NCBI GenBank assembly: GCA_000091165.1 | Contig: FP565575.1 | Location: 2,130,001-2,162,000 of the forward strand | From: Candidatus Methylomirabilis oxygeniifera | GTDB taxonomy: Bacteria; Methylomirabilota; Methylomirabilia; Methylomirabilales; Methylomirabilaceae | Reading direction: 5' to 3' | Length of the DNA stretch: 32,000 nucleotides | Shown here: piece by piece, positions 10,802 through 32,000 of the stretch | Position numbering within the stretch: the stretch's first letter is position 1 | How the letters are laid out: each line of letters opens with the position of its first letter | The notes under the pieces: model-generated | What the model was told of the DNA's origin: nothing | The model's input: the letters and a program-made list of their open reading frames with translations, nothing else | Databases searched by the model: none | Program-made: the position numbers and the translations under genes

Positions 10802-11216
10802 TCTTCCAACTCACAACATCCTGATTCTCTCCGTCACCACCCGCTACGCCATCACCGCCATACGAGACAATATCGTAATCTCCATGCTCTCCTGGCGCCT
10901 TATAGGCATAGGCGTGAGTCCACGGATCAACGGGAAGCTCTTGTTTTTTCAGATAGGGACCATCCCAGTTCTCGACCCCGCCTGGATTCACGAGAAGTGC
11001 CCTCAGCCCTTCGTCGCTAGTCGGGTACCGACCAACGTCCAGTCGAAAATTGTCCAGGGCGGCGCCGAACAGTTCAATCTGAGCTTGTGCAGCCGCTTGC
11101 TTACCCTTTCCCACCCTGCCAAAAAGCTTCGGGCCCACTAAGGCCGCCAACAAGCCGATAATGATGATAACAACCAGCAACTCGATAAGGGTGAACCCAG
11201 CCTGATTACGGCGCAA
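10767..11216 (-). CDS. gspG: type II secretion major pseudopilin GspG
   Basis: FTLIELLVVIIIIGLLAALVGPK ... NWDGPYL ... DPW is the GspG signature. TTG 11216, 7 nt after GGGAGG, gives the canonical leader MRRNQAG|F. Longer alternatives are GTG 11273 and TTG 11279 (track ORF). Confidence 0.9.
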   Translation of the reverse strand: MRRNQAGFTLIELLVVIIIIGLLAALVGPKLFGRVGKGKQAAAQAQIELFGAALDNFRLDVGRYPTSDEGLRALLVNPGGVENWDGPYLKKQELPVDPWTHAYAYKAPGEHGDYDIVSYGGDGVAGGDGENQDVVSWKSVKQAGSQAEQ

Positions 11217-11339
11217 GGTCCGGCCTCCCGCTTCCTGCCATATCCGGATATCTTTAACCCGTCGAATGTCCACACTCAACTCCTTTTATTTGGATCCGCA
11301 CTCCATCTCTACGTCGCTTTCGTACCTCACACACCGTGC

Positions 11340-12566
11340 TTAGAGCGGGAGTTCATTGATACTGAAGATGGCAAGCAGCATCGACAGCACAATGAACCCG
11401 ACGACAAGCCCAAGAAAGAGGATCAGGATCGGCTCAAGCAGTGAAGTCAGGCGCTTGACTGTCCGCCGCACACGCTCGTCATAGGTATCGGCGACCTTGA
11501 TCAGCATCTCCTCGAGTTTTCCCGTCTCTTCCCCTACCTTCGCCATATGGATGGAAAAGGACGGAAAGGCGGCGGTAGCCCGCAGTGGGCCGCTGATCCC
11601 TTCGCCCCGTTTTACCCCCTCCTGTAACCTGGACATGGCGGCAACAATGACTCGATTCGCGATCGTCTCCTTGACGATAGAAACAGCCGCGAGTACCGGG
11701 ACCCCGCTTTGGAGAAGCGTCCCGAATGTCCTGGCAAAACGAGAGACCTCGATCTCCTGAATCAGGCGACCCAACAGAGGGAGCGACAATTTCAACTGAT
11801 CCCACTGCACCTTCCCCTGGTCAGTCTGTAAATAGACTCGAAACCCGATTCCAACAAGGCCAATCAGCCCCACAAATACCCACCAGTAACCGGTCGTGAA
11901 CGCGCTGATCGCCAAAAGTATCCTCGTCGGCAGCGGCATAAGCTGCTTCGTGTCTGAGAAGATCTGAGCAAACCGTGGGATCACGAAGTTCATCATGACC
12001 ACCACAGCACCGCCACCAACGAAGAGCAATAGAATCGGATAGATGAGGGCCGATGTTACTTCGTCCCGTACCGCCTTTGAGCGCTCCATAAACCCGGCCA
12101 GCCGTGAGAGGATCACCTCCAACACACCACTTGCCTCCCCAGCCTTGACCATATTGATGTACAGCCTGGAGAAAAGTCGTGGGTGTTTGGCCAGACCGTC
12201 GGCGAATGAATTACCCGCCTGGATATCAGTCAGAATGCTGCGAAGAATCGATCGAAACCGTTGGTTGTCGGTCAGGTCCAACAGAATCGCCAGACTCCGA
12301 TCCAACTCCATCCCGGCCTCGAGCAATGTCGCGAGCTGTTGCGTGAAGGCCAGAACATCCTGGGCAGATGGTCCCCTGGCAAACGTAGTCGGGAGCCGAG
12401 CAGCACTCGGTCTGACCTCCATTGTGCTACCGGGCTGTCCGATCTTGATCGGATAGTAACCGTTAGCTCTGAGCCAAGCCACGACCGCCCGCTCATCGGC
12501 AGCCTCCATGCTACCATGGACGATCTTGGCGGTACGATCAGTGGCGGTATATTGAAATGTCCCCAT
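11340..12566 (-). CDS. gspF: type II secretion inner-membrane platform protein GspF
   Basis: 408 aa with a duplicated GspF/PilC domain and three TM segments. Confidence 0.95.
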   Translation of the reverse strand: MGTFQYTATDRTAKIVHGSMEAADERAVVAWLRANGYYPIKIGQPGSTMEVRPSAARLPTTFARGPSAQDVLAFTQQLATLLEAGMELDRSLAILLDLTDNQRFRSILRSILTDIQAGNSFADGLAKHPRLFSRLYINMVKAGEASGVLEVILSRLAGFMERSKAVRDEVTSALIYPILLLFVGGGAVVVMMNFVIPRFAQIFSDTKQLMPLPTRILLAISAFTTGYWWVFVGLIGLVGIGFRVYLQTDQGKVQWDQLKLSLPLLGRLIQEIEVSRFARTFGTLLQSGVPVLAAVSIVKETIANRVIVAAMSRLQEGVKRGEGISGPLRATAAFPSFSIHMAKVGEETGKLEEMLIKVADTYDERVRRTVKRLTSLLEPILILFLGLVVGFIVLSMLLAIFSINELPL

Positions 12567-12613
12567 ACGCAGATGCTGTCTTTATTGACACCGAATAGCG
12601 CGGTAGGTTTACG

Positions 12614-12641
12614 ACTATAGCAACTAGCGATGCGCTGTCAA
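12614..12641 (-). promoter_or_regulatory. sigma70-like promoter upstream of gspF
   Basis: Minus strand reads TTGACA (12641-12636), a 16-nt spacer, then TATAGT (12619-12614). It lies about 48 nt upstream of the gspF ATG, inside the 192-nt gspE-gspF gap. Confidence 0.45.
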
Positions 12642-12649
12642 CACAAATC

Positions 12650-12699
12650 GGGCTCTACAAGTTGCGCAAATGGTTCGAAAAATAAAGCAGATAGAGCCC
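12650..12699 (-). terminator. 8-bp stem (GGGCTCTA/TAGAGCCC) with a 34-nt loop downstream of gspE; weak terminator or processing candidate
   Basis: Perfect 8-bp inverted repeat at 12650-12657 / 12692-12699, 60 nt after the gspE stop and just upstream of the gspF promoter. The loop is long and no clean U-run follows. Confidence 0.25.
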
Positions 12700-12758
12700 C
12701 TCCTATCCGCTGTGTTGATGAAGAGAGCATACGATCTCGCATCACGAAGTGACCCTAC

Positions 12759-14480
12759 TTACGCCTCCTCTTTCGTGACCCGCAGCAGGTCCTCTACTGT
12801 AGTCACTCCCTGCTCAACTTTCATCCAACCATCTTCCCACAGGGTATTCATCCCAAAAGCTATCGCCTTCTGCCGAATCGTATTCGAGTCGGCCTTCTCC
12901 AGAATCAGTCGTTGAATCTCTTCATTGATTGCCAAAAACTCGTAGATGCCGCTGCGCCCATGGTATCCGGTAAAATTGCAGGCGGCGCATCCTTTACCAC
13001 GAAACACCTGCAGCGCTCCATCGACTGCGGTTTTGATCCCCATTTTCCGAACCGCAGCCGCATCCAACCGGTACGGCTCCCGGCACTCGGGGCAGATGAC
13101 GCGAACCAGACGTTGAGCCAGGACCGCCACGAGGACGCTGGATACCAGGTAGTTTTCGATGCCCATATCCAGGAGCCGCGTGATGGCGCCGGGTGCATCG
13201 TTCGTGTGCAGCGTGCTGAACACCAGATGCCCGGTCAGCGCGGAGTGGATGGCGATGTCCGCGGTCTCTGCATCGCGGATCTCCCCAACCATGATAATGT
13301 CTGGATCCTGACGAACGATGGAGCGTAGGCCGCTGGCGAAGGTCAGACCGATCTTGGCCTTGACATGGATCTGGTTGACTCCCTGGAGCTGGTACTCCAC
13401 CGGGTCCTCAATCGTAATAATCTTCTTGTCGGCCGAGTTGATCTCGCTCAACGCCGTATAGAGGGTCGTCGTTTTGCCGCTTCCTGTCGGACCAGTCACC
13501 AGGATCATGCCATGCGGCTTTCTGATAAGCCGCTGGAATTGTAGGCGAATATCTTCGGGCATGCCCATGTCTCCTAGGCTCAGGAGAAGACTGCTACGAT
13601 CCAGGATTCGCATCACCACGCTCTCACCGTGTAGTGTGGGAACCGTGGAAACTCGGAGATCCAGGTCCTTGCCTAGGATCTGGAGCCTGATTCGTCCGTC
13701 CTGTGGAAGCCGTCGCTCGGCAATGTTCATCTTGGCCATGATCTTGACACGAGAGATCACGGCCCGTTGCAGCCGCTTGGGAGGAGACTCCTGGTCCAGC
13801 AGTACTCCATCGACCCGGTAGCGGATTCGAAATGTATCCTCGAACGGCTCAATATGTATGTCGCTGGCGCGGGCCTCTACCGCCCGGGTGATGAGCAGAT
13901 TGACAAGCTGGATGACTGGGGCCTCGGAGGCCAGATCGCGAAGGTGATCAACATCCTCGCGATCCTCGCCGGATCCTCCACCCTCCTCCTCGCTGTACCC
14001 CTTGACGATCTTCTCGATCGTTGTCTGACCATCACCATAATACTGGTCGATCGCCTCAATGATCTCCCGCTCGTTAGCGATACAGACGGTGATAGCGAGC
14101 CCGGTACTCAGTCGAAGATCATCCAGCGTATACGGATCGGTCAGATCGCTCATGGCAACGGTCAGCGTCCCATCCTTCATCTCAATCGGGAAGACCTTGT
14201 GCTCACGCAGGTACTTCGGCGACACCCGATCTCGGATCGGCACAGGTGTAATCGAGAGAGAGGCAAGAGAAAGGTAGGGAAGCGAATACTGCTTGGCGAG
14301 GGCCTTTGCCACGTCCTCATCGGAGGCATATCCAAGCTCTACGAGAGTCTCGCCCAACCGCTTGCCGATTTCCCGCTGGTGACTCAGCCCACGCTGGAGC
14401 TGCTCTCGAGTGACGGAACCCTCACGGATCAGGATTTCGCCGATCGGTTCACGTACTTCGCCGGCTTGCCGACTGCTCAT
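12759..14480 (-). CDS. gspE: type II secretion ATPase GspE with an MshEN-type N-terminal domain
   Basis: 573 aa. Walker A GPTGSGKTT, Asp/His boxes, and a tetracysteine CPEC...CAAC zinc motif. The N-terminus carries two 24-residue MshEN-like motifs. Confidence 0.95.
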   Translation of the reverse strand: MSSRQAGEVREPIGEILIREGSVTREQLQRGLSHQREIGKRLGETLVELGYASDEDVAKALAKQYSLPYLSLASLSITPVPIRDRVSPKYLREHKVFPIEMKDGTLTVAMSDLTDPYTLDDLRLSTGLAITVCIANEREIIEAIDQYYGDGQTTIEKIVKGYSEEEGGGSGEDREDVDHLRDLASEAPVIQLVNLLITRAVEARASDIHIEPFEDTFRIRYRVDGVLLDQESPPKRLQRAVISRVKIMAKMNIAERRLPQDGRIRLQILGKDLDLRVSTVPTLHGESVVMRILDRSSLLLSLGDMGMPEDIRLQFQRLIRKPHGMILVTGPTGSGKTTTLYTALSEINSADKKIITIEDPVEYQLQGVNQIHVKAKIGLTFASGLRSIVRQDPDIIMVGEIRDAETADIAIHSALTGHLVFSTLHTNDAPGAITRLLDMGIENYLVSSVLVAVLAQRLVRVICPECREPYRLDAAAVRKMGIKTAVDGALQVFRGKGCAACNFTGYHGRSGIYEFLAINEEIQRLILEKADSNTIRQKAIAFGMNTLWEDGWMKVEQGVTTVEDLLRVTKEEA

Positions 14481-21748: not shown

Positions 21749-22804
21749 TTAATTCCAGACGCCGGGGATGGGGGTATGGCAGGTTGGGCAGGCGCCTGTT
21801 TCGAGGACGTTCTTGAAAATCGTATAGCCGCGGCGCTCGATCAGCAGGGTGCGGCAGGAGGGGCAGTAGGTGTTCTCGTAATGGCCGACACGGCCCGGCA
21901 GATTACCGACATAGACGTAATGCAGCCCGGACTGCTTACCGATCTCGGCTGCCCGGAACAGGGTGGCGGCACCCGTATTGGCATGGTCCAGCATCTTGTA
22001 GTCCTGGTGGAAGGCCGTCACATGCCACGGCAGATCGGCAGAAACGGACGCCAGGAACTCGGCGATCCGGGTCAGCTCTTTGTCGGAATCGTTAAATCCC
22101 GGCACAACGAGCGTCACGATTTCAACCCAGAACCGCTTCTCGACCAGCAGCGTGATCGTATCCAGGACGTTCTGGAGCACCCCGCCCAGCTTCCGGTAAT
22201 TGGCGTTGTTAAACCCCTTCAGGTCCACCTTATACAGGTCCACCCAGGGCTTCAGATAATCGAGTACCTCCGGCGTGCCGTTCCCGTTGCTGATATAGGC
22301 GGTCTTGAAGCCGCGCGCTTTGGCTACGCGGAAGATCTCAACCGCCCACTCGCTGGTGATCAACGGCTCATTGTAGGTGCTGGCGACCATCGGCGCACCA
22401 TACCGCTTCGCCATGTTCATGAGTTCGTCGGCCGTCACCAGCTCTGGTGGACTCACTGCGGCGGGATCGCGCAACGCCTGCGACGTGATCCAGTTCAAGC
22501 AGTACCCGCAGTGGAAGTCGCATCCCAGCATCCCGAAGCTTAAGACAAGCGATCCCGGAAGGGCGTGGAAGAATGGCTTCTTCTCGATCGGATCGACCTG
22601 CAGCGCCCCGACGTAACCAGTCGGAACCTTCAGGACACCCCCCTTGTTGAACCGGACCCGGCAGACCCCCTGGCGTCCTTCCGGAATCAGGCACCGGTGG
22701 CCGCACGCATAGCACCGCACCCGCTGATTGGGGAGCTTCTCGTATAACTCCCCCTCCTTGGTGAGTTGCGTCAACACCTCTGCCAGAGTCATTATGGCCG
22801 GCAT
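21749..22804 (-). CDS. amrS: AmmeMemoRadiSam-system radical SAM enzyme
   Basis: RVRCYACGHRCLIPEGRQGVCRVR ..., CDFHCGYCLNW (CxxxCxxC) and a C-terminal CPSC...CPTC pair match this PflA-like family. The start may be ATG 22804 or TTG 22825. Confidence 0.85.
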   Translation of the reverse strand: MPAIMTLAEVLTQLTKEGELYEKLPNQRVRCYACGHRCLIPEGRQGVCRVRFNKGGVLKVPTGYVGALQVDPIEKKPFFHALPGSLVLSFGMLGCDFHCGYCLNWITSQALRDPAAVSPPELVTADELMNMAKRYGAPMVASTYNEPLITSEWAVEIFRVAKARGFKTAYISNGNGTPEVLDYLKPWVDLYKVDLKGFNNANYRKLGGVLQNVLDTITLLVEKRFWVEIVTLVVPGFNDSDKELTRIAEFLASVSADLPWHVTAFHQDYKMLDHANTGAATLFRAAEIGKQSGLHYVYVGNLPGRVGHYENTYCPSCRTLLIERRGYTIFKNVLETGACPTCHTPIPGVWN

Positions 22805-22999
22805 GGCAATCCCTTCATGGAGCAATCGCTAGGCAACTCAACCTTCAATGACAATATAGCGCTCCGCCAGGCCTCCTACAAGCTGCAGCTCTTCCCGGTT
22901 TATCGCCTGTGGACAAAGAGCCGTTTTTCTGATCGCATCCGAGGATTCATTGACACCTCGGATCGCCTCGTTATAGAGTGCATCTACTTGTGAGCGGGC

Positions 23000-24775
23000 G
23001 TGATAATGATCGATGCCACGGAAGTCGTCGATGATCGTACGGGCGAGACGGTCCTGGAGGTCCCCCTCCGGGGTCGGCTGTTGCTGGACTGCTCCCTGTT
23101 CAACAAGGGAACGGCCTTTTCCGAACAGGAGCGGTGCGACTTCGGCTTGGTCGGCCTGCTGCCGTCCCACGTCAGCACCTTGGAGGGGCAGGCGACGCGG
23201 AGGTATGAGGAGTACCTGAAGAAGACGACGGCGCTGGAGCGTTTTCTCTTCCTCCGCGCCCTGCAGGACCGGAACGAAACGCTTTTTTACCGCCTGCTGC
23301 ACGACCACCTTACCGAAATGCTGCCGATCATCTACACCCCGGAGGTGGGAGAAGTCTGCCAGCGCTACAGCCATATTTACCACCGGTCTCGCGGACTGTT
23401 CATCTCCTACCCACAACGGCACGAGATCGACACCATTCTGGAAAACCGGCCGTATCGCCAGGTTGACGTCATCGTCGTGACTGATGGCGAGCGCATCCTC
23501 GGGCTCGGCGATCAGGGCGTGGGCGGAATCGGCATTTCGGTCGGGAAGTTGGCCCTGTACACCGTGTGCGGCGGGGTGAACCCAGGCCGGACGCTGCCCA
23601 TCGTGCTCGATGTGGGGACGAACAACCCGGAGAGGCTGGCGGACCCGCAGTACATCGGCTGGCAGCATGAACGCGTGCGCGGGCCGGACTACGACGCCTT
23701 CGTGGACGAGTTCGTGCAGGCTGTGCAGCGGCACCTGCCCGGCGTGCTGCTGCAGTGGGAAGACTTTGGAAAGGATCATGCCCGCACGCTACGAGACCGC
23801 TACCGCGACCGGCTTTGCAGTTTCAACGACGACATCCAGGGAACCGCGGCGGTGACCCTCGCAGCCCTGCTGGCAGGGGGGCGGGCCACCGGCTGTCCTC
23901 TGGTCAGCCAGCGCATCGTCATCTTGGGTCCCGGCTCGGCCGGAACAGGCATCAGCGATCTGCTGGTGGCAGCGCTGGTCCATGAAGGGTTATCCGAGGA
24001 TGAGGCCCGATCGCGGCTCTGGCTGGTGGGGCGCCACGGTCTGCTGCACACAGGGATGCGCGATCTCAACCCGGCTCAGCAGCGGTACCGCCAGCCGCTG
24101 GAGCGGCTCGCCGGCTGGGAGCGCGGGCCGGCCGGAGAGATTCCCCTGGCCGAGGTGGTGCGTCGCGTGCGACCGACAGCGCTGATCGGCGTGACCGGCC
24201 AGCCCGGCCTCTTCACCGAAGACGTGATCCGGACCCTGGCCCGGCAGGTTGAGCGCCCCATCCTCATGCCGCTCTCCAACCCGACGGCCCAGTGTGAAGC
24301 TTCGCCGGCAGACCTCGTGGCCTGGTCCGAGGGGAGGGCGCTGGTGGCAACCGGCAGCCCCTTCCCGGATGTCGCGTACCAGGGGCGCACCATCCCGATC
24401 AGCCAGTGTAACAACGCCTACGTCTTCCCCGGATTGGGCCTGGGTGTGATCGCTTCGGGGTCCCGGCGGGTCACGGACGAGATGTTCCTGGCGGCCGCCC
24501 AGGTCCTGAGCGACAGCGTGCCCCCACAGACGGGGCTCGACGCGCCCCTCCTGCCGCCGCTTGCAGAGATCCGCGCCCTCTCGCGTCGCATCGCGCTGGC
24601 CGTCGGACTCGAAGCCCAGCGCCAGGGGCTCGCCCCGCGAACCTCGCTCCAGGAATGGGAGCACCTGCTGGACGCCAGACAGTGGGAGCCGCGTTATCGC
24701 CCCATGCGTCCCCAACGTCGCCCGGCGGACCGACTCGGATTGCATCCGGAGAGCGGTTCGACTGGAGTGGAATAG
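23000..24775 (+). CDS. maeA: NAD(P)-dependent malic enzyme (oxaloacetate-decarboxylating)
   Basis: 591 aa. RGRLLLDCSLFNKGTAFSEQER, VVTDGERILGLGDQG, NDDIQGTAAV and ILGPGSAGTGI are malic-enzyme signatures. The C-terminus extends about 17 aa past the conserved W.P.YR end. Confidence 0.95.
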   Translation: MIMIDATEVVDDRTGETVLEVPLRGRLLLDCSLFNKGTAFSEQERCDFGLVGLLPSHVSTLEGQATRRYEEYLKKTTALERFLFLRALQDRNETLFYRLLHDHLTEMLPIIYTPEVGEVCQRYSHIYHRSRGLFISYPQRHEIDTILENRPYRQVDVIVVTDGERILGLGDQGVGGIGISVGKLALYTVCGGVNPGRTLPIVLDVGTNNPERLADPQYIGWQHERVRGPDYDAFVDEFVQAVQRHLPGVLLQWEDFGKDHARTLRDRYRDRLCSFNDDIQGTAAVTLAALLAGGRATGCPLVSQRIVILGPGSAGTGISDLLVAALVHEGLSEDEARSRLWLVGRHGLLHTGMRDLNPAQQRYRQPLERLAGWERGPAGEIPLAEVVRRVRPTALIGVTGQPGLFTEDVIRTLARQVERPILMPLSNPTAQCEASPADLVAWSEGRALVATGSPFPDVAYQGRTIPISQCNNAYVFPGLGLGVIASGSRRVTDEMFLAAAQVLSDSVPPQTGLDAPLLPPLAEIRALSRRIALAVGLEAQRQGLAPRTSLQEWEHLLDARQWEPRYRPMRPQRRPADRLGLHPESGSTGVE

Positions 24776-24909
24776 GCTGACACATGTGCAGCGTTTGCCG
24801 TCGTTCGCCTTCATACAAATTTCTTGTTAAGTGTCCGAAAAGGTTATAGAGTTTTGGGCAGCTTCAAGAACGACTGGTCGAGGTAGACTGATCAGCATGC
24901 ATAATAGTT

Positions 24910-25395
24910 ATGTGGACAGAAGTTCGGGTACGTAGCGTGGGACCAAGCGAGATTATCGGGATAGCCGGAATCCTCGTCGCCATCGGCACCTATTTTTCTG
25001 GCGTCAGGCATGGTAGGCGGCAGGAACACGCCAGGTTTGAGCACGACCGCGATCTCGAACGAGAAAGGCGACTCCACGAGCTGGCAGGAAAGGTTGCTGA
25101 CGAATACGTAGGTATGTCCCGTCGCAACTATGACCGGGGGCCACACGCGATGGCTACGCTCGGCCTTGACCAACTCGGCAGCGATGCCCTTATCAGGGAA
25201 GCCATTCACGAGATGTACGTTCGAAGTGGAAGCGACCCGTGGGCTGGCCAGGGCGGCCACGTCGATGATTTGGACCTCGTAGCTTTCTTCCGACACGTTC
25301 GTGAGAAGAAGGTAGACTTCTCCCACACTCAAGTCGAGAAGGTTGCTCAGGAGGTCAGAGCTGCAAGCGGTGCAAAGGGTCGGAAAGCCGTATAA
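24910..25395 (+). CDS. hypothetical N-terminally membrane-anchored protein (possible cassette ORF)
   Basis: 161 aa. A TM helix (IIGIAGILVAIGTYFSGV) is followed by a charged helical domain. The stop abuts the attC-like palindrome. A competing antisense ORF (24892..25332) cannot be excluded from composition alone. Confidence 0.4.
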   Translation: MWTEVRVRSVGPSEIIGIAGILVAIGTYFSGVRHGRRQEHARFEHDRDLERERRLHELAGKVADEYVGMSRRNYDRGPHAMATLGLDQLGSDALIREAIHEMYVRSGSDPWAGQGGHVDDLDLVAFFRHVREKKVDFSHTQVEKVAQEVRAASGAKGRKAV

Positions 25396-25492
25396 TTACG
25401 GCGTGCAGCCGACCGTCGGTGCGCCTTCGTTGCGGGCATCGTGCCCTGTGCGATAGTTGCGCGCCGCGGGCGGCTGACGCCGGGCGTTAGGG
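25390..25492 (+). other. attC-like imperfect palindrome (candidate integron cassette recombination site)
   Basis: CGGCGTGCAGCCG (25399-25411) pairs with CGGCTGACGCCG (25471-25482), 12 bp with one bulged G, and imperfect pairing continues inward. The 3' end GCGTTAGGG (GTTAGGG at 25486-25492) resembles an R' core. The R''-like GTATAAT is poor. Confidence 0.35.
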
Positions 25493-25516
25493 GTAAGAAA
25501 TGAAAAAGAGAGAGTC

Positions 25517-26008
25517 ATGAAACTGTTAGTCGCAATGATCTTGGTAGCCGTGCTTGGAGGCTGCGCAACCGCTTATCAACCGATGGGTGATACCGGCGGT
25601 TTCTATCACCAGAAAGTTGTAGAAAACGCCTATATCATTGGCTTTAAAGGTAATGGGTTCACAGACTCTCAACGGGCAAATGATTTTGCAAAACTTCGCG
25701 CCGCAGAAATTGGATCTAAGCTCGGCTTCACTCATTTCGTTATCGAAGGGACATTGGATAAATCAGGAACCCAGATGGTGGATATGGGAAGTACCACAAC
25801 CACATCTGGCAACGTCTATGGGTACGGTAATTCGGCATCCTTCTACGGCACAAGCAGAACAACGAGCAATACCATGCCGGTCTTTAAACCGGGAGTAGAA
25901 ATCGGAGTTCTGTATTCCGAAGGAGTCCCAGAAGGAAGGCACCTTGAAGTGTTCGTGATTCAAGATGTTATTAATGAACTTAAAGCCAAATACAAAATCA
26001 CTCCCTAA
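25517..26008 (+). CDS. lipoprotein, unknown function (low-GC cassette-like ORF)
   Basis: 163 aa. Signal MKLLVAMILVAVLGG|C has a lipobox LGGC. RBS-like AAGAAATGAAAAAGAGAGAG lies upstream. The gene is visibly AT-richer than its flanks and is followed by an attC-like palindrome. Confidence 0.8.
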   Translation: MKLLVAMILVAVLGGCATAYQPMGDTGGFYHQKVVENAYIIGFKGNGFTDSQRANDFAKLRAAEIGSKLGFTHFVIEGTLDKSGTQMVDMGSTTTTSGNVYGYGNSASFYGTSRTTSNTMPVFKPGVEIGVLYSEGVPEGRHLEVFVIQDVINELKAKYKITP

Positions 26009-26014
26009 CAACAC

Positions 26015-26071
26015 CATCAACTCGGACGTGCAAAAGCGCCGCTTCGCTCTGCTTTTACACGCCGGTTAGCG
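26015..26071 (+). other. attC-like imperfect palindrome (candidate integron cassette recombination site)
   Basis: 57 bp. CATCAAC (R''-like) is followed by arm 26022-26037, which pairs with arm 26051-26064, then GTTAGCG (R'-like). AAC 26019-21 pairs with GTT 26065-67. Two single-base bulges (T26022, A26026) and one mismatch; 13-nt loop. Confidence 0.4.
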
Positions 26072-26079
26072 CAAACGTT

Positions 26080-26187
26080 GAGGCTGTAGAAAAAGTCACA
26101 TGGATGCAAAATCAGTTTTCCTAAGTGCTTGATTTATCCCGGGTAGCATGCCACAAAAAGATGGATTCCGGGGTTTTCTACAGCCTC
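26080..26187. mobile_element. 108-bp foldback element with 14-bp perfect terminal inverted repeats (MITE-like or long attC)
   Basis: GAGGCTGTAGAAAA (26080-26093) and TTTTCTACAGCCTC (26174-26187) enclose an AT-rich 80-nt core. GTT flanks both sides (26077-79, 26188-90). GTTGGAT on the right fits GTTRRRY. Confidence 0.4.
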
Positions 26188-26357
26188 GTTGGATGCCATG
26201 CGGGGAGCGGCCGTGTCGTCCGGTGCGTCCCGCGCTCGCGTCGTGCATAGTTGATGGCGCAGGCCGAAATGGAGGGCGTGTCGCTTGACACACTTGATGA
26301 CCCTCTTGCCTGTGAGCGACTGGGACCATGATAGAACCGTGAATGACCGATGCCGGG

Positions 26358-26900
26358 TCTGTCCGGTACGACGGGTCACTTGAAAAGTACGGCACTGAAC
26401 AGGAGGGTTTGGTCATGAGTAGTGCGGTCGAATTGCCGAGCTTGGCACACGTCATCACGCGTTACCGCTTCGCGTACCTGATGACGACCAGCGCCAAGGG
26501 CGCGCCGCATGCGGTTGCGGTAGCCGCAGTGCTGCAAGGCGGAGACCTGGTCGTGAACGGGATCGGTCGCCGTAGCCGCGAGAACGCGCTGGCGCGGCCG
26601 GCCGTCAGCCTGGTCTGGCCGCCGCAATCCGAAGCGGACTACTCGCTGATCATCGACGGGCAGGCCGCCGTGACCGACGACTCGCTGCGGATCACGCCAA
26701 CACGTGCGGTACTCCATCGTTCGACGCGGTCTTCCGCGCCCAATGTATCGGGGGCCTGCGAATCCGATTGTGTGGAGATCGATCTCAGCCTCTCGTCCGA
26801 CAGGCCGATGATGCGGAGCATATGAATCGGTCGCCACTGAATCTGCCGGCTCACCCGCCGTCCGAACCGACGCCACTGCGCGGCGCGGCTCAACGCTGTC
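26358..26900. repeat. dispersed duplication copy 1 (PNPOx-like gene plus flanks), paired with 30636-31180
   Basis: By-eye alignment shows the same order and orientation. The encoded proteins differ at about 11 of 136 residues. Similarity starts at tctgtccgg and fades after ccactgcgcggcgcggc. Confidence 0.9.
26415..26825 (+). CDS. pyridoxamine 5'-phosphate oxidase-like (split-barrel flavin/deazaflavin-binding) protein, copy 1
   Basis: 136 aa from ATG 26415, preceded by CAGGAGGG. FAYLMTTSAKGAPHAVAVAAVLQGGDLVV...RRSRENALARPAVSLVW is consistent with the PNPOx-like fold. This assignment is from recall only. Confidence 0.6.
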   Translation: MSSAVELPSLAHVITRYRFAYLMTTSAKGAPHAVAVAAVLQGGDLVVNGIGRRSRENALARPAVSLVWPPQSEADYSLIIDGQAAVTDDSLRITPTRAVLHRSTRSSAPNVSGACESDCVEIDLSLSSDRPMMRSI

Positions 26901-26947
26901 GCTACAGGGAGCTTGACAACTGTCACGTGATGGATTACGTTTGATAT

Positions 26948-27229
26948 GTGATCAAGGGCTTCGCAGACAGACACACACAGGCATTGTTCGAGACCGGCCG
27001 GTCCAAGCGATTGCCGTCGGATATACTGCGTCGAGCGCGGAGAAAGCTGGAGTACATCGACTTGGCGACGCGTCTGGATGACCTTCTGGTGCCTCCGGGT
27101 AATCGACTCCACCAGCTCGAGGGAGACCGAAAAGGACAGTACGCGATTGCCATCAACGACCAATGGCGTATATGCTTCCGGTTTGTTGCCGGTGACGCTT
27201 ACGACGTCGAAGTGACGGATTATCACTGA
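26948..27229 (+). CDS. higB: type II toxin HigB (plasmid-maintenance killer protein family)
   Basis: (GTG)IKGFADRHTQALFETGRSKRLPSDILRRARRKLEYID ... NRLHQLEGDRKGQYAIAINDQWRICFRF is the HigB-like toxin signature. Confidence 0.9.
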   Translation: MIKGFADRHTQALFETGRSKRLPSDILRRARRKLEYIDLATRLDDLLVPPGNRLHQLEGDRKGQYAIAINDQWRICFRFVAGDAYDVEVTDYH

Positions 27230-27242
27230 AGTGAGGTGAGCA

Positions 27243-27557
27243 ATGGGCATTGCGAACACAAGGAATAAGGAGGTGCGGCCTATCCACCCGGGCGAGATGC
27301 TTCGGGAGGATTTCCTTCCCGACTATAGGCTCACAGTTTCGGGTCTCGCTCACGCGCTTGGCGTTTCACGCCAGACTGTAAATGAATTACTTCGTGAGCG
27401 CCGGTCGGTAAGTCCGGAGATGGCGCTCAGACTTTCGCGTCTGTTTGGCAACTCTCCTGAGTTCTGGCTGAACGCGCAGCGTGCGATCGATTTATGGGAT
27501 GCCGCCGAGGAGATCGGTCTGGAGGTTAAGCGGATCAAGCCCTTGGTCGCCGCATAA
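27243..27557 (+). CDS. higA: type II antitoxin HigA (XRE-type HTH)
   Basis: IHPGEMLREDFLPDYRLTVSGLAHALGVSRQTVNELLRERRSVSPEMALRLSRLFGNSPEFWLNAQ is the HigA antidote signature. It starts 14 nt after higB. Confidence 0.9.
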   Translation: MGIANTRNKEVRPIHPGEMLREDFLPDYRLTVSGLAHALGVSRQTVNELLRERRSVSPEMALRLSRLFGNSPEFWLNAQRAIDLWDAAEEIGLEVKRIKPLVAA

Positions 27558-27607
27558 CACCAGAAAAATACGTCACTGCAGTGCACCCAACGCACCTATT
27601 ACATGTC

Positions 27608-27730
27608 CTAGGTCTCCTCCAGATCGATCAAGGCCCGGATCATGTCCGTCTCGGTGATAATGCCGACGACCTTCCCGCCCTTTACCACCGGCAGCGCCCC
27701 GATCCGCCGATTGAGGAGCAGACGCGCCGG
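27608..27730 (-). pseudogene. relic 3' end of a CBS-domain gene (copy 1 of 3)
   Basis: Minus-strand translation ARLLLNRRIGALPVVKGGKVVGIITETDMIRALIDLEET* aligns with the C-terminus of the intact CBS gene at 31238..31651. There is no upstream coding continuation. Confidence 0.85.
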
Positions 27731-27759
27731 AAGCTAAACACTCCGGAATCACATTGGGC

Positions 27760-27787
27760 TTGCAAGGACCATAGTGCTACTATAGTA
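27760..27787 (+). promoter_or_regulatory. candidate promoter/operator of the Phd-ParE module
   Basis: TTGCAA (27760-65), a 15-nt spacer, then TATAGT (27781-86). A perfect 10-bp palindrome TACTATAGTA (27778-87) lies 9 nt before the ATG. No SD is present, so the transcript may be near-leaderless. Confidence 0.35.
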
Positions 27788-27795
27788 TTACTTTT

Positions 27796-28053
27796 ATGCG
27801 GACCGAACTCGTCACAACACTGAAGCGCCAGGCCACAGAGCTTCTCTCCGAGCTGGATCGGAACAAGGAGCCTATCCTCATTACGCAGCACGGCGTACCA
27901 AGCGCCTACCTTGTAGACGTTGAAACCTACGAGACCTTGCAGCATCGGATGAGCCTGCTCGAGGGAATCGCGCGTGGGGAGAAAGCTATTGAGGAGGGGC
28001 GTACGCTCACTCATGCGCAGGCCAAAAAGCGCATGAATCGATGGCTGAAGTAA
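27796..28053 (+). CDS. type II antitoxin, Phd/YefM family
   Basis: MRTELVTTLKRQATELLSELDRNKEPILITQHGVPSAYLVDVETYE. It overlaps the toxin gene by 13 nt. Confidence 0.9.
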   Translation: MRTELVTTLKRQATELLSELDRNKEPILITQHGVPSAYLVDVETYETLQHRMSLLEGIARGEKAIEEGRTLTHAQAKKRMNRWLK

Positions 28054-28361
28054 TTTGGACCGAGCCCGCGCTGAGCGACCTGGATGCCATCGCCGACTAC
28101 ATCGCATTGGACAATCCGGACGCGGCGAAGACGTTAGTCCGGAATGTATTTCGGCACGTGGGTCAGCTTGCTGATCATCCCAAGAGCGGTTCTAAGCCAC
28201 AGGAGCTCAAGGGGTGGCGCTACCGACAGATCGTCGAACCACCATGCCGGATCTTCTACCGGGAAGAAGGCTCACGCGTCTATGTGCTGCATGTCATGCG
28301 AGGCGAACGGTTGCTTCGCCCTTCTGTTCTTGTAACCCGCAGCGAGGTGCCGACCAAGTAA
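28041..28361 (+). CDS. parE: type II toxin, ParE/RelE family
   Basis: IWTEPALSDLDAIADYIALDNPDAAKTLV ... YRQIVEPPCRIFYREEGSRVYVLHVMRGER. Confidence 0.9.
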   Translation: MAEVIWTEPALSDLDAIADYIALDNPDAAKTLVRNVFRHVGQLADHPKSGSKPQELKGWRYRQIVEPPCRIFYREEGSRVYVLHVMRGERLLRPSVLVTRSEVPTK

Positions 28362-28412
28362 CGCCCAACTACTGGTTCCACGCGCCGTTCCTACCCCTCA
28401 CGTTGACCGCAC

Positions 28413-28548
28413 TTACGAAGCCTCCTCCAGATCGATCAAGGCCCGGATCATGTCCGTCTCGGTGATGATGCCGACGACCTTCTCATCCTTTAATACCGGC
28501 AGCGCGCCGATCCGTCGATTGAGCAGCAGGCGCGCCGCCTCGGCGGTA
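28413..28548 (-). pseudogene. relic 3' end of a CBS-domain gene (copy 2 of 3)
   Basis: Minus-strand translation PTAEAARLLLNRRIGALPVLKDEKVVGIITETDMIRALIDLEEAS* compares with PIADAARLLLNRRIGALPVVKESKLVGIITETDIIRALIDLEEAS* in the intact gene. It is about 90% identical to copy 1 by eye and clearly less similar to the intact gene. Confidence 0.85.
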
Positions 28549-28646
28549 GGAGCCGCGTTATCTGCCCATGCGTCCCCAACGCCGCCCGGGGATCGACTAT
28601 AGGGCGGCTGAGAAAGGCCGCCGAAGGTGGCAGCGTTTGTCGCGCC
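28549..28646 (+). pseudogene. relic 3' end of a malic-enzyme gene
   Basis: ggagccgcgttatctgcccatgcgtccccaacgccgcccggggatcgact matches 24685-24735 with about 6 differences in 51 nt. In the maeA frame it reads EPRYLPMRPQRRPG versus EPRYRPMRPQRRPA. A second patch, cagcgtttgtcg, matches 24789-24800. Confidence 0.7.
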
Positions 28647-28806
28647 AGAATCGTCTTGATCGGTTGGGCTAAATATGGGAGATTACAAACATATTCGTTG
28701 TTCAGAAGTGGAGTCGATTTGGGAGATAGGCCGCCGGCCTTTGTCGGTTTCAAATGCGGCTCACTTATAGTTCGGTGACAGAAGGAAACGGCGAAGGAGA
28801 ATCGAC

Positions 28807-29046
28807 ATGCCGATTATCGCTCGGTTCTACGGCATCCTCATCAAGTAAGAACACGGCGTCCCCCATTTCCACGCCATCTATGGGGCATTCAACGGTGTCT
28901 TCAACGTCCAGACACTCGAAATGATTGAAGGAGACATGCCCGCCCGTGCCGTAAAGATGGTGAAGGTTTGGGCGAAGAAGTACAATCGGGACCTGATGGA
29001 TATGTGGAAGACACAGAAATATCGACAGCTTCCCGGGTTGGAGTAA
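28807..29046 (+). pseudogene. DUF4160-family gene interrupted by an in-frame TAA at codon 14
   Basis: AAGGAG RBS, then MPIIARFYGILIK*EHGVPHFHAIYGAFNGVFNVQTLEMIEGDMPARAVKMVKVWAKKY... in one continuous frame. FYGI..., PHFHA and the rest match DUF4160 as I recall it. Confidence 0.6.
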
Positions 29047-29052
29047 GAGGGC

Positions 29053-29400
29053 ATGAAGAGCTACCCAAAGATTCAAAGCGTTCAGGTGCTTCCTGGCAAG
29101 AAACTTCGGGTAACGTTCGTCAATGGTGGTATCCGTCTTTACGATTGCCGTCCACTCCTGAAGGAAGAACCATTCAAAGCATTGCAGGACGATGCGCTGT
29201 TTTATCTCGCAAGAGCTGAAGAGCACGGTTACGGGGTCATCTGGAACGACGAAATAGATTTGGCAGAATCAGAAGTCTGGCTTCATGGGCGCACCGAACA
29301 AGGCATTGTAGCTGACCTGTCACGCTTGCATCGCCCTACCGTGAAAAGTCGCAAGGCGAGGTCAAGTGCGAAGGCGGGCGCAAGCGCGCCAGACGGCTAA
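29053..29400 (+). CDS. DUF2442 domain protein (usual partner of DUF4160)
   Basis: MKSYPKIQSVQVLPGKKLRVTFVNGGIRLYDCRPLL ... GYGVIWNDEIDLAESEVW. It starts 7 nt after the DUF4160 stop. Confidence 0.75.
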   Translation: MKSYPKIQSVQVLPGKKLRVTFVNGGIRLYDCRPLLKEEPFKALQDDALFYLARAEEHGYGVIWNDEIDLAESEVWLHGRTEQGIVADLSRLHRPTVKSRKARSSAKAGASAPDG

Positions 29401-29458
29401 ACGCTCCGTTCGGCACGCAATAGAAGGACGTCGCCTACAGGAGTTATGAGGGATCGAG

Positions 29459-29647
29459 ATGATCGAAAAGACGGTCAAGAGATTCGGTGTGGAAAAGGAT
29501 TCATCCATTAAGGAAGACCTGGCTTATTGGCTCAGCAAGACACCCCGAGAGCGCGTCGCCGCCATTGAATTCCTGAGAGGGCAATACCATGGAAGTTCAG
29601 CAAGACTTCAGAGATCTGCTCGAGTTACTCAACAAGAACGACGTTGA
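29459..29647 (+). CDS. small hypothetical protein (62 aa), putative partner of the downstream nucleotidyltransferase-fold protein
   Basis: GAGGGA RBS. KEDLAYWLSKTPRERVAAIEFLRGQY...RLQR resembles small proteins I recall seeing upstream of such NTase-fold genes. It overlaps the next ORF by 59 nt. Confidence 0.5.
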   Translation: MIEKTVKRFGVEKDSSIKEDLAYWLSKTPRERVAAIEFLRGQYHGSSARLQRSARVTQQERR

Positions 29648-30035
29648 GTACATCATCGTGGGAGCCTACGCGCTGGGATTTCATGGCGCCCCCCGCTACA
29701 CGGGCGACCTTGACGTCTTCGCGAAGCCCGAGCCTATCAATGCCAAAAACATCATGCGAGCCCTCCATGCATTTGGGTTTGGATCTGTCGGCCTGACAGA
29801 GGCGGATTTTGAACAAGAGGGCAGAGTCGTGCAGCTCGGATTTCCGCCGGTCAGGGTCGATATCATTACCTCGATCACCGGGGTATCATGGGAACAGGCC
29901 CGCTCGGGTAGGGTCCAAGGTCAATTTGGAGACTTGCCGGTACACTATATCGGCCGGGAGGACCTCATAGCGAATAAGAGAGCGTTGGGCCGCAAGAAGG
30001 ATCTTGCCGATCTGGAAGCTATCGGGGAAGACTGA
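29589..30035 (+). CDS. nucleotidyltransferase-fold protein (minimal NTase / DUF6036-like)
   Basis: 148 aa. FRDLLELLNKNDVEYIIVGAYALGFHGAPRYTGDLDVF has a G-x-n-DxD-like NTase core, with a C-terminal KRALGRKKDLADLEAI. Confidence 0.65.
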   Translation: MEVQQDFRDLLELLNKNDVEYIIVGAYALGFHGAPRYTGDLDVFAKPEPINAKNIMRALHAFGFGSVGLTEADFEQEGRVVQLGFPPVRVDIITSITGVSWEQARSGRVQGQFGDLPVHYIGREDLIANKRALGRKKDLADLEAIGED

Positions 30036-30282
30036 CCACTTGAAGGTGGGCGTGCCAAACATCGGGCTGGACACGGATGCGCAGAACGGCGTCCACGCAC
30101 TTATCAGCTCGGTTGTTCGAGGCCAGTCGGTCCACGCAATTACTGGCAGATAGACTGCTCGCCCCAACCTGGCCAAGGACGCGGCAACCCAAATCATGCA
30201 TGGCGTGTCACTGTCCATAGCAGGTGAGCTCGATTGGGATGCCGCAGCCTTCGCCGCGCCAATCGTCGTGAGGTGAAACACT

Positions 30283-30582
30283 ATGTCGAGAATGTCTAAG
30301 CGGCCCAGTGTCCGCATGCCTACTGCGGAAGAGGACACAATCATTACTGCGGCAGCCAAACGCGACCCCGACGCACAACCCCTTACGTCAAAGCAGTTGC
30401 AGGCCATGGTGCCGCTGAAAGCCCTGCGTGGTCGGCCGAAATCTGCGCACAAGAAGCTGCTCGTGTCCGTGCGCTACAGCCCCGAGGTTGTCGCCTACTT
30501 CAAATCCACCGGAGAAGGGTGGCAGTCGCTCATGGACAGCGTACTTCGGAAATACGTGGCACGCCATTCGCGTCACGCGTAA
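30283..30582 (+). CDS. brnA: BrnA-family antitoxin (DUF4415)
   Basis: DPDAQPLTSKQLQAMVPLKALRGRPKSAHKKLLVSVRYSPEVVAYFKSTGEGWQSLMDSVLRKYV matches the GRPk...K..vslR...v...fk..G.GWQt..n..Lr pattern of BrnA/DUF4415. Confidence 0.8.
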   Translation: MSRMSKRPSVRMPTAEEDTIITAAAKRDPDAQPLTSKQLQAMVPLKALRGRPKSAHKKLLVSVRYSPEVVAYFKSTGEGWQSLMDSVLRKYVARHSRHA

Positions 30583-30635
30583 GCAATGGGCTGAACCTAA
30601 CGGTTGATCGGACAGCCGCAAGCGCAGGTTGCGAT

Positions 30636-31180
30636 TCTGTCCGGCACGACGGGTCACTTGAGAGATACAGTACTGAACAGGAGGGTGTGGTCATGAGTAT
30701 TGCAGTCGAATTGCCGAGCTTGGCACACGTCATCACGCGTTACCGCTTCGCGTACCTGATGACGACCAGCGCCACGGGCGCGCCGCATGCGGTTGCGGTA
30801 GCCGCGGTGCTGCAAGGCGGAGACCTGGTCGTGAACGGGATCGGTCGCCGCAGCCGCGAGAACGCGCTGGCGCGGCCGGCCGTCGGCCTGGTCTGGCCGC
30901 CGCAATCCGAAGCGGACTACTCGCTGATCATTGACGGGCAGGCCGCCGTGACCGGCGAATCGCTTCGGATCACGCCGACGCGCGCGGTACTCCATCGTTC
31001 GGCGCGGTCTTCCGAGCCCGTTGTGTCGGGGGCCTGCGAATCCGATTGCGTGGAGATCGATCTGAGCATCTCGTCCGACAGGCCGATGGCGCGGGGAATA
31101 TGAATCGGTAGCCACTACACGTGCCGGCTCACCCGTCGTCCGAACCGACGCCACTGCGCGGCGCGGCGCAACTTTGTCGT
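30636..31180. repeat. dispersed duplication copy 2 (PNPOx-like gene plus flanks), paired with 26358-26900
   Basis: See copy 1. The two copies are the same length to within 2 nt. Confidence 0.9.
30693..31103 (+). CDS. pyridoxamine 5'-phosphate oxidase-like protein, copy 2
   Basis: 136 aa from ATG 30693, preceded by CAGGAGGG. About 92% amino-acid identity to copy 1. Confidence 0.6.
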   Translation: MSIAVELPSLAHVITRYRFAYLMTTSATGAPHAVAVAAVLQGGDLVVNGIGRRSRENALARPAVGLVWPPQSEADYSLIIDGQAAVTGESLRITPTRAVLHRSARSSEPVVSGACESDCVEIDLSISSDRPMARGI

Positions 31181-31237
31181 TTGAGGCTGGTCAGTCTAAA
31201 CAATTACTGCCAGATATAACGCTCGCCCCAATGACCT

Positions 31238-31651
31238 TTACGAAGCCTCCTCCAGATCGATCAGGGCCCGGATAATATCGGTTTCCGTGATGATGCCGAC
31301 CAGCTTCGACTCCTTAACAACCGGGAGCGCCCCGATCCTCCTGTTCAGGAGCAGCCGGGCAGCATCCGCGATAGGCGTTTCCGGCGTAACCGTGACCACC
31401 TTCTTGGTCATGATCTCCTTTACCTTCAATTTTTCAAGCAGGTAGTGCACCTCGTAGATGGACAGGCTTGTAGCAGGAGAGGGGCGCGCAAGTCGAAAGT
31501 CCCGATCGGTGACAATCCCCAGTAGCTTGCTGTTATCGGTCACCAGTAGATGTCGAATCCCCTTTTTCTTCATCATGTACAGCGACGCATTGGCCCGTTC
31601 ATCTGGACCGACCGTCACCAGCTTGGTCTGCATATACCGTTTTACCAGCAT
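31238..31651 (-). CDS. CBS-pair domain protein (intact)
   Basis: 137 aa with two CBS motifs (MQTKLVTVGPDE...GIRHLLVTD...LLGIVTDRD and IMTKKVVTVTPETPIADAARLL...IGALPVV...LVGIITETDI). Confidence 0.9.
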   Translation of the reverse strand: MLVKRYMQTKLVTVGPDERANASLYMMKKKGIRHLLVTDNSKLLGIVTDRDFRLARPSPATSLSIYEVHYLLEKLKVKEIMTKKVVTVTPETPIADAARLLLNRRIGALPVVKESKLVGIITETDIIRALIDLEEAS

Positions 31652-31711
31652 CGCTTCTCCTTTACATTGAGACGGTTCTCATCGCTATCCTGCTCGCATT
31701 CATCTCTGAGC

Positions 31712-32000
31712 TTATCTGCCCCGTAGGCGACGAACGATGGCACCCAGGCGCTGCATCGCGGCCGAGTAGGTCCCTGGCGGGATCATCGCATCGATCAGGA
31801 TTGTGGCTGCGACATCCAGCGCCTCCACTAAGGCCCGCTCAAGCTCCTCGGCTGTGCGAACGCGAACGGCGCGAGCCCCAAGGCTTTCGGCCAGCCGCAC
31901 ATAGTCGGGGGTCGGCAGGTCGTACGATCGAGCGGGTCCATCCATCGCGGCCAGCATGCCATGGCTGTGATTGTTAAAGAGGATGACAATGGCGTGCAGG
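31712..32000 (-). CDS. thiamine-pyrophosphate-dependent enzyme (acetolactate-synthase-like), C-terminal part; 5' end outside the window
   Basis: The frame stays open to the window edge. It reads ...LHAIVILFNNHSHGMLAAMDG...YVRLAESLGARAVRVRTAEELERAL, typical of the TPP-binding C-domain. Confidence 0.75.
   Translation of the reverse strand, partial: LHAIVILFNNHSHGMLAAMDGPARSYDLPTPDYVRLAESLGARAVRVRTAEELERALVEALDVAATILIDAMIPPGTYSAAMQRLGAIVRRLRGR

Follow-up and report, generated by a model that had tools for sequence, protein, structure and literature searches.

How could the 3' end of one conserved gene come to lie directly against the 3' end of another, each cut off from the rest of its coding sequence? 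The question is raised by a site in Candidatus Methylomirabilis oxyfera (contig FP565575.1), of which we analysed a stretch of 32,000 nt, called the window below; all coordinates are positions within it. At 28548/28549 the truncated end of a CBS-pair gene on the minus strand abuts the truncated end of the malic-enzyme gene maeA on the plus strand, and a working copy of each gene is present in the window. A sequence-only reading of this stretch had taken the site for the novel joint of a tandem or Campbell-type duplication and had guessed that the second copy came from a different lineage. The structural reading and the idea of another lineage are largely right, and the event is of a known kind. 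We believe, with a probability of roughly 65%, that the joint is a scar left when two diverged alleles of one genomic island recombined additively.

The joint and the repeats around it

In six-frame translation the minus strand of 28413-28548 reads ...PTAEAARLLLNRRIGALPVLKDEKVVGIITETDMIRALIDLEEAS*, which is the final 45 codons (93-137, with the ending 'AS*') of a CBS-pair protein (Pfam CBS, E 2.8e-10), and the plus strand from 28549 reads EPRYLPMRPQRRPG..., which is the end of a malic enzyme. We refer to the first as CBS relic 2 and to the second (28549-28598) as the maeA relic. Self-BLAST of the window agrees with the translation. The 3' segment of the working maeA (24682-24735, plus strand; x in what follows) recurs at 28546-28598 with 88.9% identity (E 3e-12), better than chance, and the 3' segment of the working CBS gene (31238-31375; y) recurs at 28413-28550 with 79.7% identity (E 5e-29). 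The maeA relic also matches, at 95%, positions 2126-2167 of locus L007 from Methylomirabilota FeB_30, which holds the only close relative of maeA among species representatives (91% aa). A 'second patch' of maeA similarity that the sequence-only reading had added to the first did not hold up: it is a 13-nt match (24788-24800 versus 28630-28642) that is out of line with the first patch, and its score is reached or surpassed in 14 of 300 shuffles.

At the joint (28541-28550) about 5 nt are common to the two similarities, that to CBS and that to maeA. The joint reads GGCGGTAGG and, on the side of relic 2, ...GCCGCCTCGGCGG|TAGGAGCCGCG... At the corresponding place CBS alleles have GGCGAT (antisense, in metagenome locus L088) or GCGATAGG (working copy), and maeA alleles have GGCGGTGGG (GGCGGTGGGAGCC). 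We infer that the crossover fell within a GC-rich imperfect microhomology of 4-6 nt shared by antisense CBS and maeA, the parental sequences being reconstructed and not observed.

Could the joint be the work of an assembler that concatenated two strain haplotypes? The genome does come from an enrichment culture, and short-read contigs do break at repeats in this region, for example at 31138, which is also what true repeats are expected to cause. However, the joint is crossed independently of the reference. A 976-kb contig in ENA (ERZ24907703, 'Methylomirabilis_oxyfera_contig_6') and assembly GCA_009026205.1 are 100% identical to the window over 22001-32000. Read-derived Logan contigs carry more weight still. 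One from SRR023516, found identically in 13 samples (L178), equals 28437-30734 at 100%, and another from SRR22387949 (L179) equals 28503-30287 at 99.9%; both span 28548/28549. The joint is thus seen in three assemblies and in short-read contigs from at least 14 runs. Because these further assemblies and read-derived contigs cross it, the joint is real DNA and an artefact is excluded; the artefact would survive only if one chimeric template had been shared by all of them, to which we give next to no credence. An 87-aa chimeric open reading frame (28413-28676, minus strand) joins the antisense maeA relic to CBS relic 2, and GCA_009026205.1 lists it as a CBS-domain gene; a look-up of the reading frame at 28490-28753 returned nothing.

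The region holds more repeats than these two. A third copy of the CBS 3' end (27591-27742 in the self-comparison) is 91% identical to relic 2 and 77% to the working gene; we call it relic 1 (27591-27730, minus strand), and it comprises codons ~98 to the end with ~14 nt of native downstream flank. In the direct alignment of the two relics, 27614-27729 against 28422-28537, identity is 91.4%. Relic 1 is annotated as a 37-aa CBS gene in GCA_009026205.1. A unit with a PNPOx-like gene occurs at 26358-26901 (gene 26415-26825, plus strand, with a weak Pfam PNPOx_N match below the curated cut-off) and again at 30636-31179 (gene 30693-31103, plus strand, protein cluster P0001), the two being 92.5% identical and lying one in each half, as the sequence-only reading had noticed.

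Each end of the interval, the 3' end of maeA and the 3' end of CBS, therefore occurs in two directly oriented copies, and a novel y|x joint lies between them, which is the topology of a partial direct duplication. The sequence-only reading went further and proposed tandem duplication of the whole interval that starts within the 3' end of maeA and stops within that of CBS. Its topology stands, but duplication of one interval does not, since the interiors of the two halves (24736-26357 and 28599-30635) share no similarity in self-BLAST. Collinear descent of both halves from one interval in situ is contradicted by these dissimilar interiors, and by the affinities of relic 2, which is nearer to other lineages than to the working copy.

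Where the CBS relics come from

The working CBS gene (31238-31651, minus strand, 137 aa; Pfam CBS, E 1e-33) and relic 2 can be compared over codons 98-135, where 24 of 114 nt differ, distributed over codon positions 1, 2 and 3 as 6/1/17. Such a split is improbable under an even spread (P = 2e-4), and it is still improbable (P = 0.01-0.03) if 45-50% of changes are placed at third positions, as when half of the change occurred on a selected branch. Relic 2 contains no stop codon and over the same codons is 1 aa away from the protein of locus L087. Frameshifts are absent from both relics. Relic 1 reads ...ARLLLNRRIGALPVVKGGKVVGIITETDMIRALIDLEET*DM*, which is the 139-aa 'EEAQDM*' ending of proteins P0242 and P0268 altered only by A>T and Q>stop; a look-up of P0268, as a possible 'QDM*' donor state, returned nothing.

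The affinities of the copies point the same way. Relic 2 differs by 12-15% from L087, L088 and FeB_30 and from the working copy by 21%. Neighbour-joining on CBS nt 292-405 groups the working copy with the contigs L191 and L193, as (working copy,(L191,L193)) with 75% bootstrap, and the relics with FeB_30, as (relic 2,(relic 1,L007)) with 65%. L191 and L193 carry the nearest CBS relatives of M. oxyfera (96% and 94% aa). The working protein is 93-96% identical in amino acids to the 139-aa proteins P0241-P0243 and has in common with them the signature PVVK[DE][SA]K[LV]VGIITETDIIRALIDLEEA. Judged by these comparisons, the body of the working CBS gene is native to the M. oxyfera clade. By their third-position bias, intact frames and grouping with FeB_30, the relics are foreign and young; as their codon pattern indicates, they are recently inactivated CBS pieces from other lineages and did not arise from the resident gene by decay. 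An origin of the second copy in a different lineage, as had been guessed, is thereby supported, both by the 6/1/17 split and by the phylogeny of the three CBS 3' copies, which places the relics with FeB_30 and the working 3' end with island-free relatives.

These data also bear on tandem duplication in situ, in which a microhomology-mediated unequal exchange would have doubled the stretch between the 3' ends of maeA and CBS. Divergence, turnover of cassettes in one copy and a later allelic replacement of the working CBS would have followed. A y|x joint with short microhomology is what such an exchange should leave, and the PNPOx copies are indeed each other's nearest relatives (92.5%, against 86-89% to the units in L007, L167 and L174). 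Yet decay in place should have spread changes evenly over codon positions and not 6/1/17 with intact frames, relic 2 should not be nearer to L087, L088 and L007 than to its supposed sister, the interiors should be similar, and several further events have to be assumed. We regard this scenario as rather improbable.

Relics 1 and 2 share a unique synonymous change, CTG>TTG. Their differences are unevenly placed, with 1 in the 48 nt of codons 120-135 and 9 in the 66 nt of codons 98-119, a pattern that suggests kinship between the relics or gene conversion, or a mosaic history. Distances of the CBS copies taken by thirds hint at a gradient and go no further than a hint. At the CBS end the working copy and relic 2 are identical over a block of 25 nt, and a 'GC|TTCGTAA' junction is common to three different CBS alleles.

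A further remnant is a copy, 56-63 nt long, of the spacer between PNPOx and CBS (30105-30167; 78.6% to 31176-31231, E 3e-6). It ends 6 nt short of the position of the CBS stop, and similarity extends on neither side, with no PNPOx remnant upstream and no CBS or BrnT remnant downstream. Outward from the working CBS gene the order is thus spacer relic, relic 2, relic 1. Their breakpoints, at CBS codon 93, at codon ~98 and 6 nt past the stop, all lie within or beside a GC-rich stretch, that of relic 1 being in the same stretch as that of relic 2 and ~15 nt from it. On this evidence there are at least three nested layers, and the joint belongs to one of them. Breakpoints that change from layer to layer speak against a fixed recombination site.

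The tail of maeA

The working maeA (23000-24775, plus strand, 591 aa; Pfam malic E 4e-72, Malic_M E 5e-94; 91% aa to the L007 orthologue) has a long C-terminal tail, which had been taken for a possible by-product of the duplication. After the W.P.Y motif homologues have 7-13 residues, M. oxyfera 25, FeB_30 18, and the frame of the relic 36. FeB_30, which is single-copy here, is therefore long-tailed as well, and the by-product idea fails. All three maeA alleles share ...RPMRPQR (...RPQR(R)P) and then diverge, so the variable region starts inside the last maeA codons in every allele, the single-copy one included. An exact look-up of the maeA protein returned nothing.

A mobile island between the radical-SAM and CBS genes

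Is the whole interval native to this position? In L191, L193 and the metagenome loci L088, L089 and L090, which carry CBS orthologues, CBS is followed directly by the radical-SAM gene, i.e. the site is empty. Coming from CBS, the alignment of these relatives to the window reaches 31244; it picks up again at 22885, towards the radical-SAM gene, and the ~40 nt in between are peculiar to the relatives. Since the closest relatives have CBS directly beside the radical-SAM gene, 22886-31243 constitutes a variable, horizontally acquired island of 8358 bp, rich in toxin-antitoxin genes, which lies between the radical-SAM gene and the last CBS codons. Its radical-SAM boundary is just before GCTTGTAGG, and its CBS boundary is just after codon A136, GAGGAGGC|TTCGTAA; the final codon and stop ('S*') of the working CBS gene therefore come from the island. 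The CBS proteins of island-free genomes have 139 aa and end in QGT*, QGA*, QGS*, QDM* or REA*.

FeB_30, which is more distantly related, carries the island in a single copy, with the order radical-SAM, maeA, BrnTA, a 165-nt segment, HicAB, PNPOx, CBS and the thiamine pyrophosphate (TPP) enzyme gene. The 165-nt segment (L007 3117-3281) has an 86.7% counterpart in the non-coding stretch 28610-28774, after the maeA end of the second M. oxyfera allele; in FeB_30 the BrnTA pair separates it from the end of maeA. Relic arrays, sought in all fetched CBS loci, were found in M. oxyfera loci only, other double matches being the two CBS motifs of one gene. The gap between CBS and the radical-SAM gene thus looks like a hot spot: it is empty in five relatives, filled otherwise in L087, occupied by a single island in FeB_30 and by a stacked one in M. 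oxyfera. In L087 (863-1199 and 1759-2178) the genes of the different insert lie on the CBS strand and follow the CBS stop, and most of the TPP-enzyme gene upstream of CBS is deleted. The radical-SAM orthologue beside CBS in L193 (1337-3820) has an intein (827 aa; weak Intein_splicing and LAGLIDADG_3 matches) that the M. oxyfera gene lacks.

On one side of the joint the radical-SAM gene and maeA provide ~2.2 kb with 89% identity to L007; on the other, CBS and the TPP-enzyme gene (31712 onward, minus strand) reach 83-86% identity to L007 and L191. Followed along maeA, CBS and the TPP-enzyme gene, the identity to L007 rises and falls between 73% and 95%, with no clear step that would mark a recombination breakpoint.

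The units of the island and site-specific capture

All island genes between maeA and CBS are on one strand, and some of them form sharply bounded units that are known from elsewhere. The PNPOx unit (26388-26904 and 30674-31181) consists of the gene with ~27 nt upstream and ~95 nt downstream. It recurs with 82-88% nucleotide identity beside a UPF0236 transposase (L167 5014-5530), amid insertion-sequence and integrase debris (L170 6653-7158) and on a plasmid-like contig with ParA, resolvase and ParDE genes (L174 4324-4801), and protein homologues with at least 70% identity occur in metagenome-assembled genomes of Burkholderiales. The Phd-ParE toxin-antitoxin unit (27750-28391, plus strand; Phd 27796-28053, ParE 28041-28361; Pfam E 7e-14 and 1.5e-19) is 91.3% identical to positions 2894-3535 of a groundwater contig (L183, GCA_900218215.1), again with sharp ends, and no CBS fragment accompanies the unit there.

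The two PNPOx copies differ by 41 mismatches, of which only 4 fall in the 227 nt of 26427-26653 (30705-30931 in the second copy) and 37 in the remaining 317 nt (Fisher P = 5e-6). This uneven spread suggests a gene-conversion tract between the copies, in which case the underlying divergence would be ~11-13%, near the value of the maeA patch.

Was the island then assembled by site-specific capture, either of integron-like cassettes or by an integrative element whose target is the CBS 3' end and which supplies a new 3' end at each insertion? The single strand, the sharp ends of units found at 82-91% nucleotide identity in unrelated contexts, the same-strand toxin-antitoxin array of L183 with repeats between its members and the 'GC|TTCGTAA' junction in three CBS alleles would all suit such capture. 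However, no integrase or other recombinase, IntI included, was found in the island, in the scanned window reading frames or in the 10-kb flanks annotated in L001 and L176. The 3' flank of PNPOx, the flanks after HigA and ParE and the spacer fold no better than shuffles (z -0.7 to +1.3), their consensus fold lacks an end-to-end stem, and the L183 repeats (z 0.0 to -1.4) are not attC-like either, so that the scores of all these elements lie between +1.3 and -1.4. The CBS breakpoints vary (codon 93, codon ~98, +6 nt) with no identical att core, and the L183 Phd-ParE unit has no CBS fragment. Integron cassettes, which the same-strand sharp-ended units had suggested to us, were rejected for want of attC-like hairpins and of an integrase; an integrative element at a gene 3' end was rejected for want of an integrase and a common core. 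Taken together, site-specific capture seems to us very improbable.

The L183 array reads BrnA, HicB, DUF4160-DUF2442, Phd-ParE, RelE on one strand, with repeats of ~165 nt between (1996-2172, 2801-2896, 3507-3672), which do not fold like attC. Two of these three repeats start just after stop codons with GCCCAAC or CCACCAAC, and all three end in GTTCGAC, GTTCGGC or GTTAGGT.

How the joint could have formed

In some Methylomirabilis lineages the gap between the radical-SAM and CBS genes houses an island with maeA, a PNPOx-like gene and changing toxin-antitoxin modules. Two conserved 'handles' flank its variable core: the final ~50 nt of maeA on one side and the final ~45 codons of CBS on the other. 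We propose that an island allele from another lineage recombined with the resident allele in the M. oxyfera lineage. One end would have been joined by ordinary homology and the second illegitimately, where maeA codon ~566 and antisense CBS codon ~93 would share the short GC-rich microhomology GGCG[A/G]T. In this way the incoming allele would have been added beside the resident one without replacing it, and the 3' ends of the foreign CBS gene and of maeA, both truncated, would have been left fused to each other. We prefer the addition of a foreign allele to the duplication of a resident one because the interiors are unrelated, the relics carry a signature of selection and have foreign affinities, and the island is mobile among lineages.

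Two mirror-image routes can be imagined. In the one that we favour, the donor would be a linear fragment of an FeB_30-like genome that runs from the radical-SAM gene and maeA through PNPOx copy 1, HigBA, relic 1 and Phd-ParE into the donor CBS gene. The long maeA homology would serve as the anchor, and the far end would join 54 nt inside the resident maeA 3' end, by homology-facilitated illegitimate recombination; the second half and the working CBS gene would be resident DNA. In the other route the anchor would be CBS and the TPP-enzyme gene, and the donor would have to belong to the M. oxyfera clade and to carry the island already. We favour the first route because the native working CBS gene is untouched, both relics can come from one FeB_30-like donor and the anchor measures 2 kb. 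Relic 1 and the spacer relic show that events of this kind had occurred earlier, either in the M. oxyfera lineage or in the donor.

The sequence-only reading had named a Campbell-type event as one possibility, which can be stated as follows: a circle with one island allele, from x in maeA to y in CBS, closed by an illegitimate y|x join, and integrated through a single homologous crossover. Its final topology would be identical, partial duplication of a homologous locus is the experimental signature of single-crossover integration of a circle (PMC3240628), and the 25-nt identical block of the working copy and relic 2 could host the crossover. The topology is thus compatible with this mechanism, but the mechanism itself is strained. 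The gene order demands a crossover in the 135-nt CBS segment (80% identity) or in the 54-nt maeA segment, whereas the 544-nt PNPOx homology (~90%) would be a likelier site; a crossover there would place the spacer and a CBS relic right after PNPOx copy 1, which is not observed. An extra circularisation step is required as well. A one-ended event on linear DNA, homologous at one end and illegitimate at the other, would appear to be the simpler fit to this gene order, and we consider the circle unlikely.

Several points weigh against additive recombination by such a one-ended event, and we do not wish to understate them. Only a single island-bearing relative (FeB_30) is available, and neither the donor nor the recipient allele has been seen. 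The tree support is moderate (65-75%) and rests on 114 nt. We know of no report of natural competence in M. oxyfera. The identity between the PNPOx copies (92.5%) exceeds that between relic 2 and the working CBS gene (79.7%), which needs a gene-conversion tract or segments with different histories. The 54-nt duplication at the anchor end is atypical of a one-ended mechanism. Indeed, in E. coli true one-ended events are predicted to give deletions, and duplications of a homologous segment came from single crossovers of circular molecules (PMC3240628); for a product of the duplication type this favours the Campbell route.

One may also ask whether the stacking was selected and not accidental. 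Every island allele has toxin-antitoxin pairs of its own. A swap of alleles would lose the resident antitoxins and kill the cell, so that only additive products, in which the old modules are retained and new ones gained, would survive. We put this forward as a doubtful speculation. If it were true, the maeA and CBS 3' ends would be a recurrent 'stacking site' at which toxin-antitoxin islands grow layer by layer and leave nested displaced gene ends behind, in parallel to the orphan immunity arrays of toxin loci. If it were general, displaced 3' relics near toxin-antitoxin clusters would record past invasions by alleles.

The locus offers evidence at the sequence level of DNA exchange between Methylomirabilis lineages ~15-20% apart. 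In M. oxyfera maeA is island cargo and does not belong to the core genome, a point that matters when the metabolism of this anaerobic methane oxidiser is reconstructed. Recombination between the PNPOx copies, which are 4278 bp apart, could produce a deletion, variable among sub-populations.

Other features of the window

The remaining island genes are all on the plus strand. Two reading frames without a family match occupy 24910-26008, and a HigB-HigA toxin-antitoxin pair occupies 26948-27557 (Pfam HigB-like_toxin E 1.7e-18, HTH_3 E 8e-9). The genes of the second half are cassette-like. Among them, a DUF4160-like pseudogene (28808-29049) has an in-frame TAA after codon 13 (MPIIARFYGILIK*EHGVPHFH...), followed by an intact DUF2442 gene (29053-29400); L183 has an intact DUF4160-DUF2442 pair at 2261-2768. 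Then come a 62-aa reading frame (29459-29647) and a DUF6036 nucleotidyltransferase (29589-30035), the three DUF families being assigned by Pfam. The BrnA antitoxin (30283-30582; Pfam BrnA_antitoxin E 3e-17) is an orphan with no BrnT upstream, and the preceding 250 nt hold the PNPOx-CBS spacer relic.

Outside the island, a type II secretion or type IV pilus-like cluster (2846-14480, minus strand) encodes a secretin, type II secretion protein C, PilM/N, type II secretion proteins K, J and F and the E ATPase; it might be relevant to DNA uptake. The sole Rfam match in the window, unrelated to the island, is to Ms_IGR-5, an actinobacterial small RNA family, at 2184-2390 (plus strand, 62.6 bits, E 8e-12) between the GHMP-kinase and secretin genes of this NC10 bacterium. 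A promoter and terminator scan and a composition profile were uninformative.

Comparison with known systems

How does this locus compare with arrangements already described? Microhomology-mediated tandem duplication leaves a similar head-to-tail joint of interval ends at a few shared bases, but here the interiors are unrelated and the relics show a signature of purifying selection and foreign affinities. Chromosomal integron arrays likewise consist of small, sharply bounded units on one strand, many of them toxin-antitoxin pairs, that are shared across unrelated genomes; they differ in having IntI and attC-like folding with R''/L'' pairing, neither of which is found here, and the repeats between the units of M. 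oxyfera are gene relics. Campbell integration also yields inserted DNA flanked by two copies of a homologous segment with a novel y|x joint. Here, however, no circular intermediate and no plasmid or phage functions were found, and the crossover would have to avoid the longest homology, the PNPOx unit.

Homology-facilitated illegitimate recombination, a one-ended 'anchor' mechanism, is reported for Acinetobacter, Streptococcus pneumoniae and Pseudomonas stutzeri, as cited in PMC5361080 and PMC3240628. As in that mechanism, foreign DNA is added beside a homologous anchor, and neither a recombinase gene nor a fixed site appears to be involved; a short GC-rich microhomology, which the mechanism has at its second joint, may be present here too. 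The long homologous anchor beside the insert and the other-lineage origin of the inserted DNA are both found in M. oxyfera. The differences are that the event is read here from its scar alone, that the donor is a diverged allele of the same island and not unrelated DNA, and that 54 nt (or 135 nt) of the anchor are present in duplicate, while in experiments the usual outcome is a deletion of recipient DNA (PMC3240628).

One-ended homologous and illegitimate integration is established, and it has been proposed to account for nested displaced 3' ends and orphan immunity genes at type VI secretion and Rhs loci (PMC5361080). In that article and the references it cites, the arrays of Rhs, contact-dependent inhibition and type VI secretion genes are explained by successive one-ended insertions of other strains' alleles. 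There, too, a working gene is followed by nested displaced 3' ends with small genes of the addiction or immunity type between them. The correspondence has its bounds: the nested series of 3' ends is present in M. oxyfera, and a polymorphic toxin with a cognate immunity gene is not. The gene in question encodes a conserved 137-aa CBS-pair protein, the displaced ends are its conserved part and no variable toxin domain, and the genes between them are type II toxin-antitoxin pairs on the opposite strand, self-contained and not cognate to the displaced ends. The nested displaced-3'-end arrays of type VI secretion and Rhs loci are the closest described pattern.

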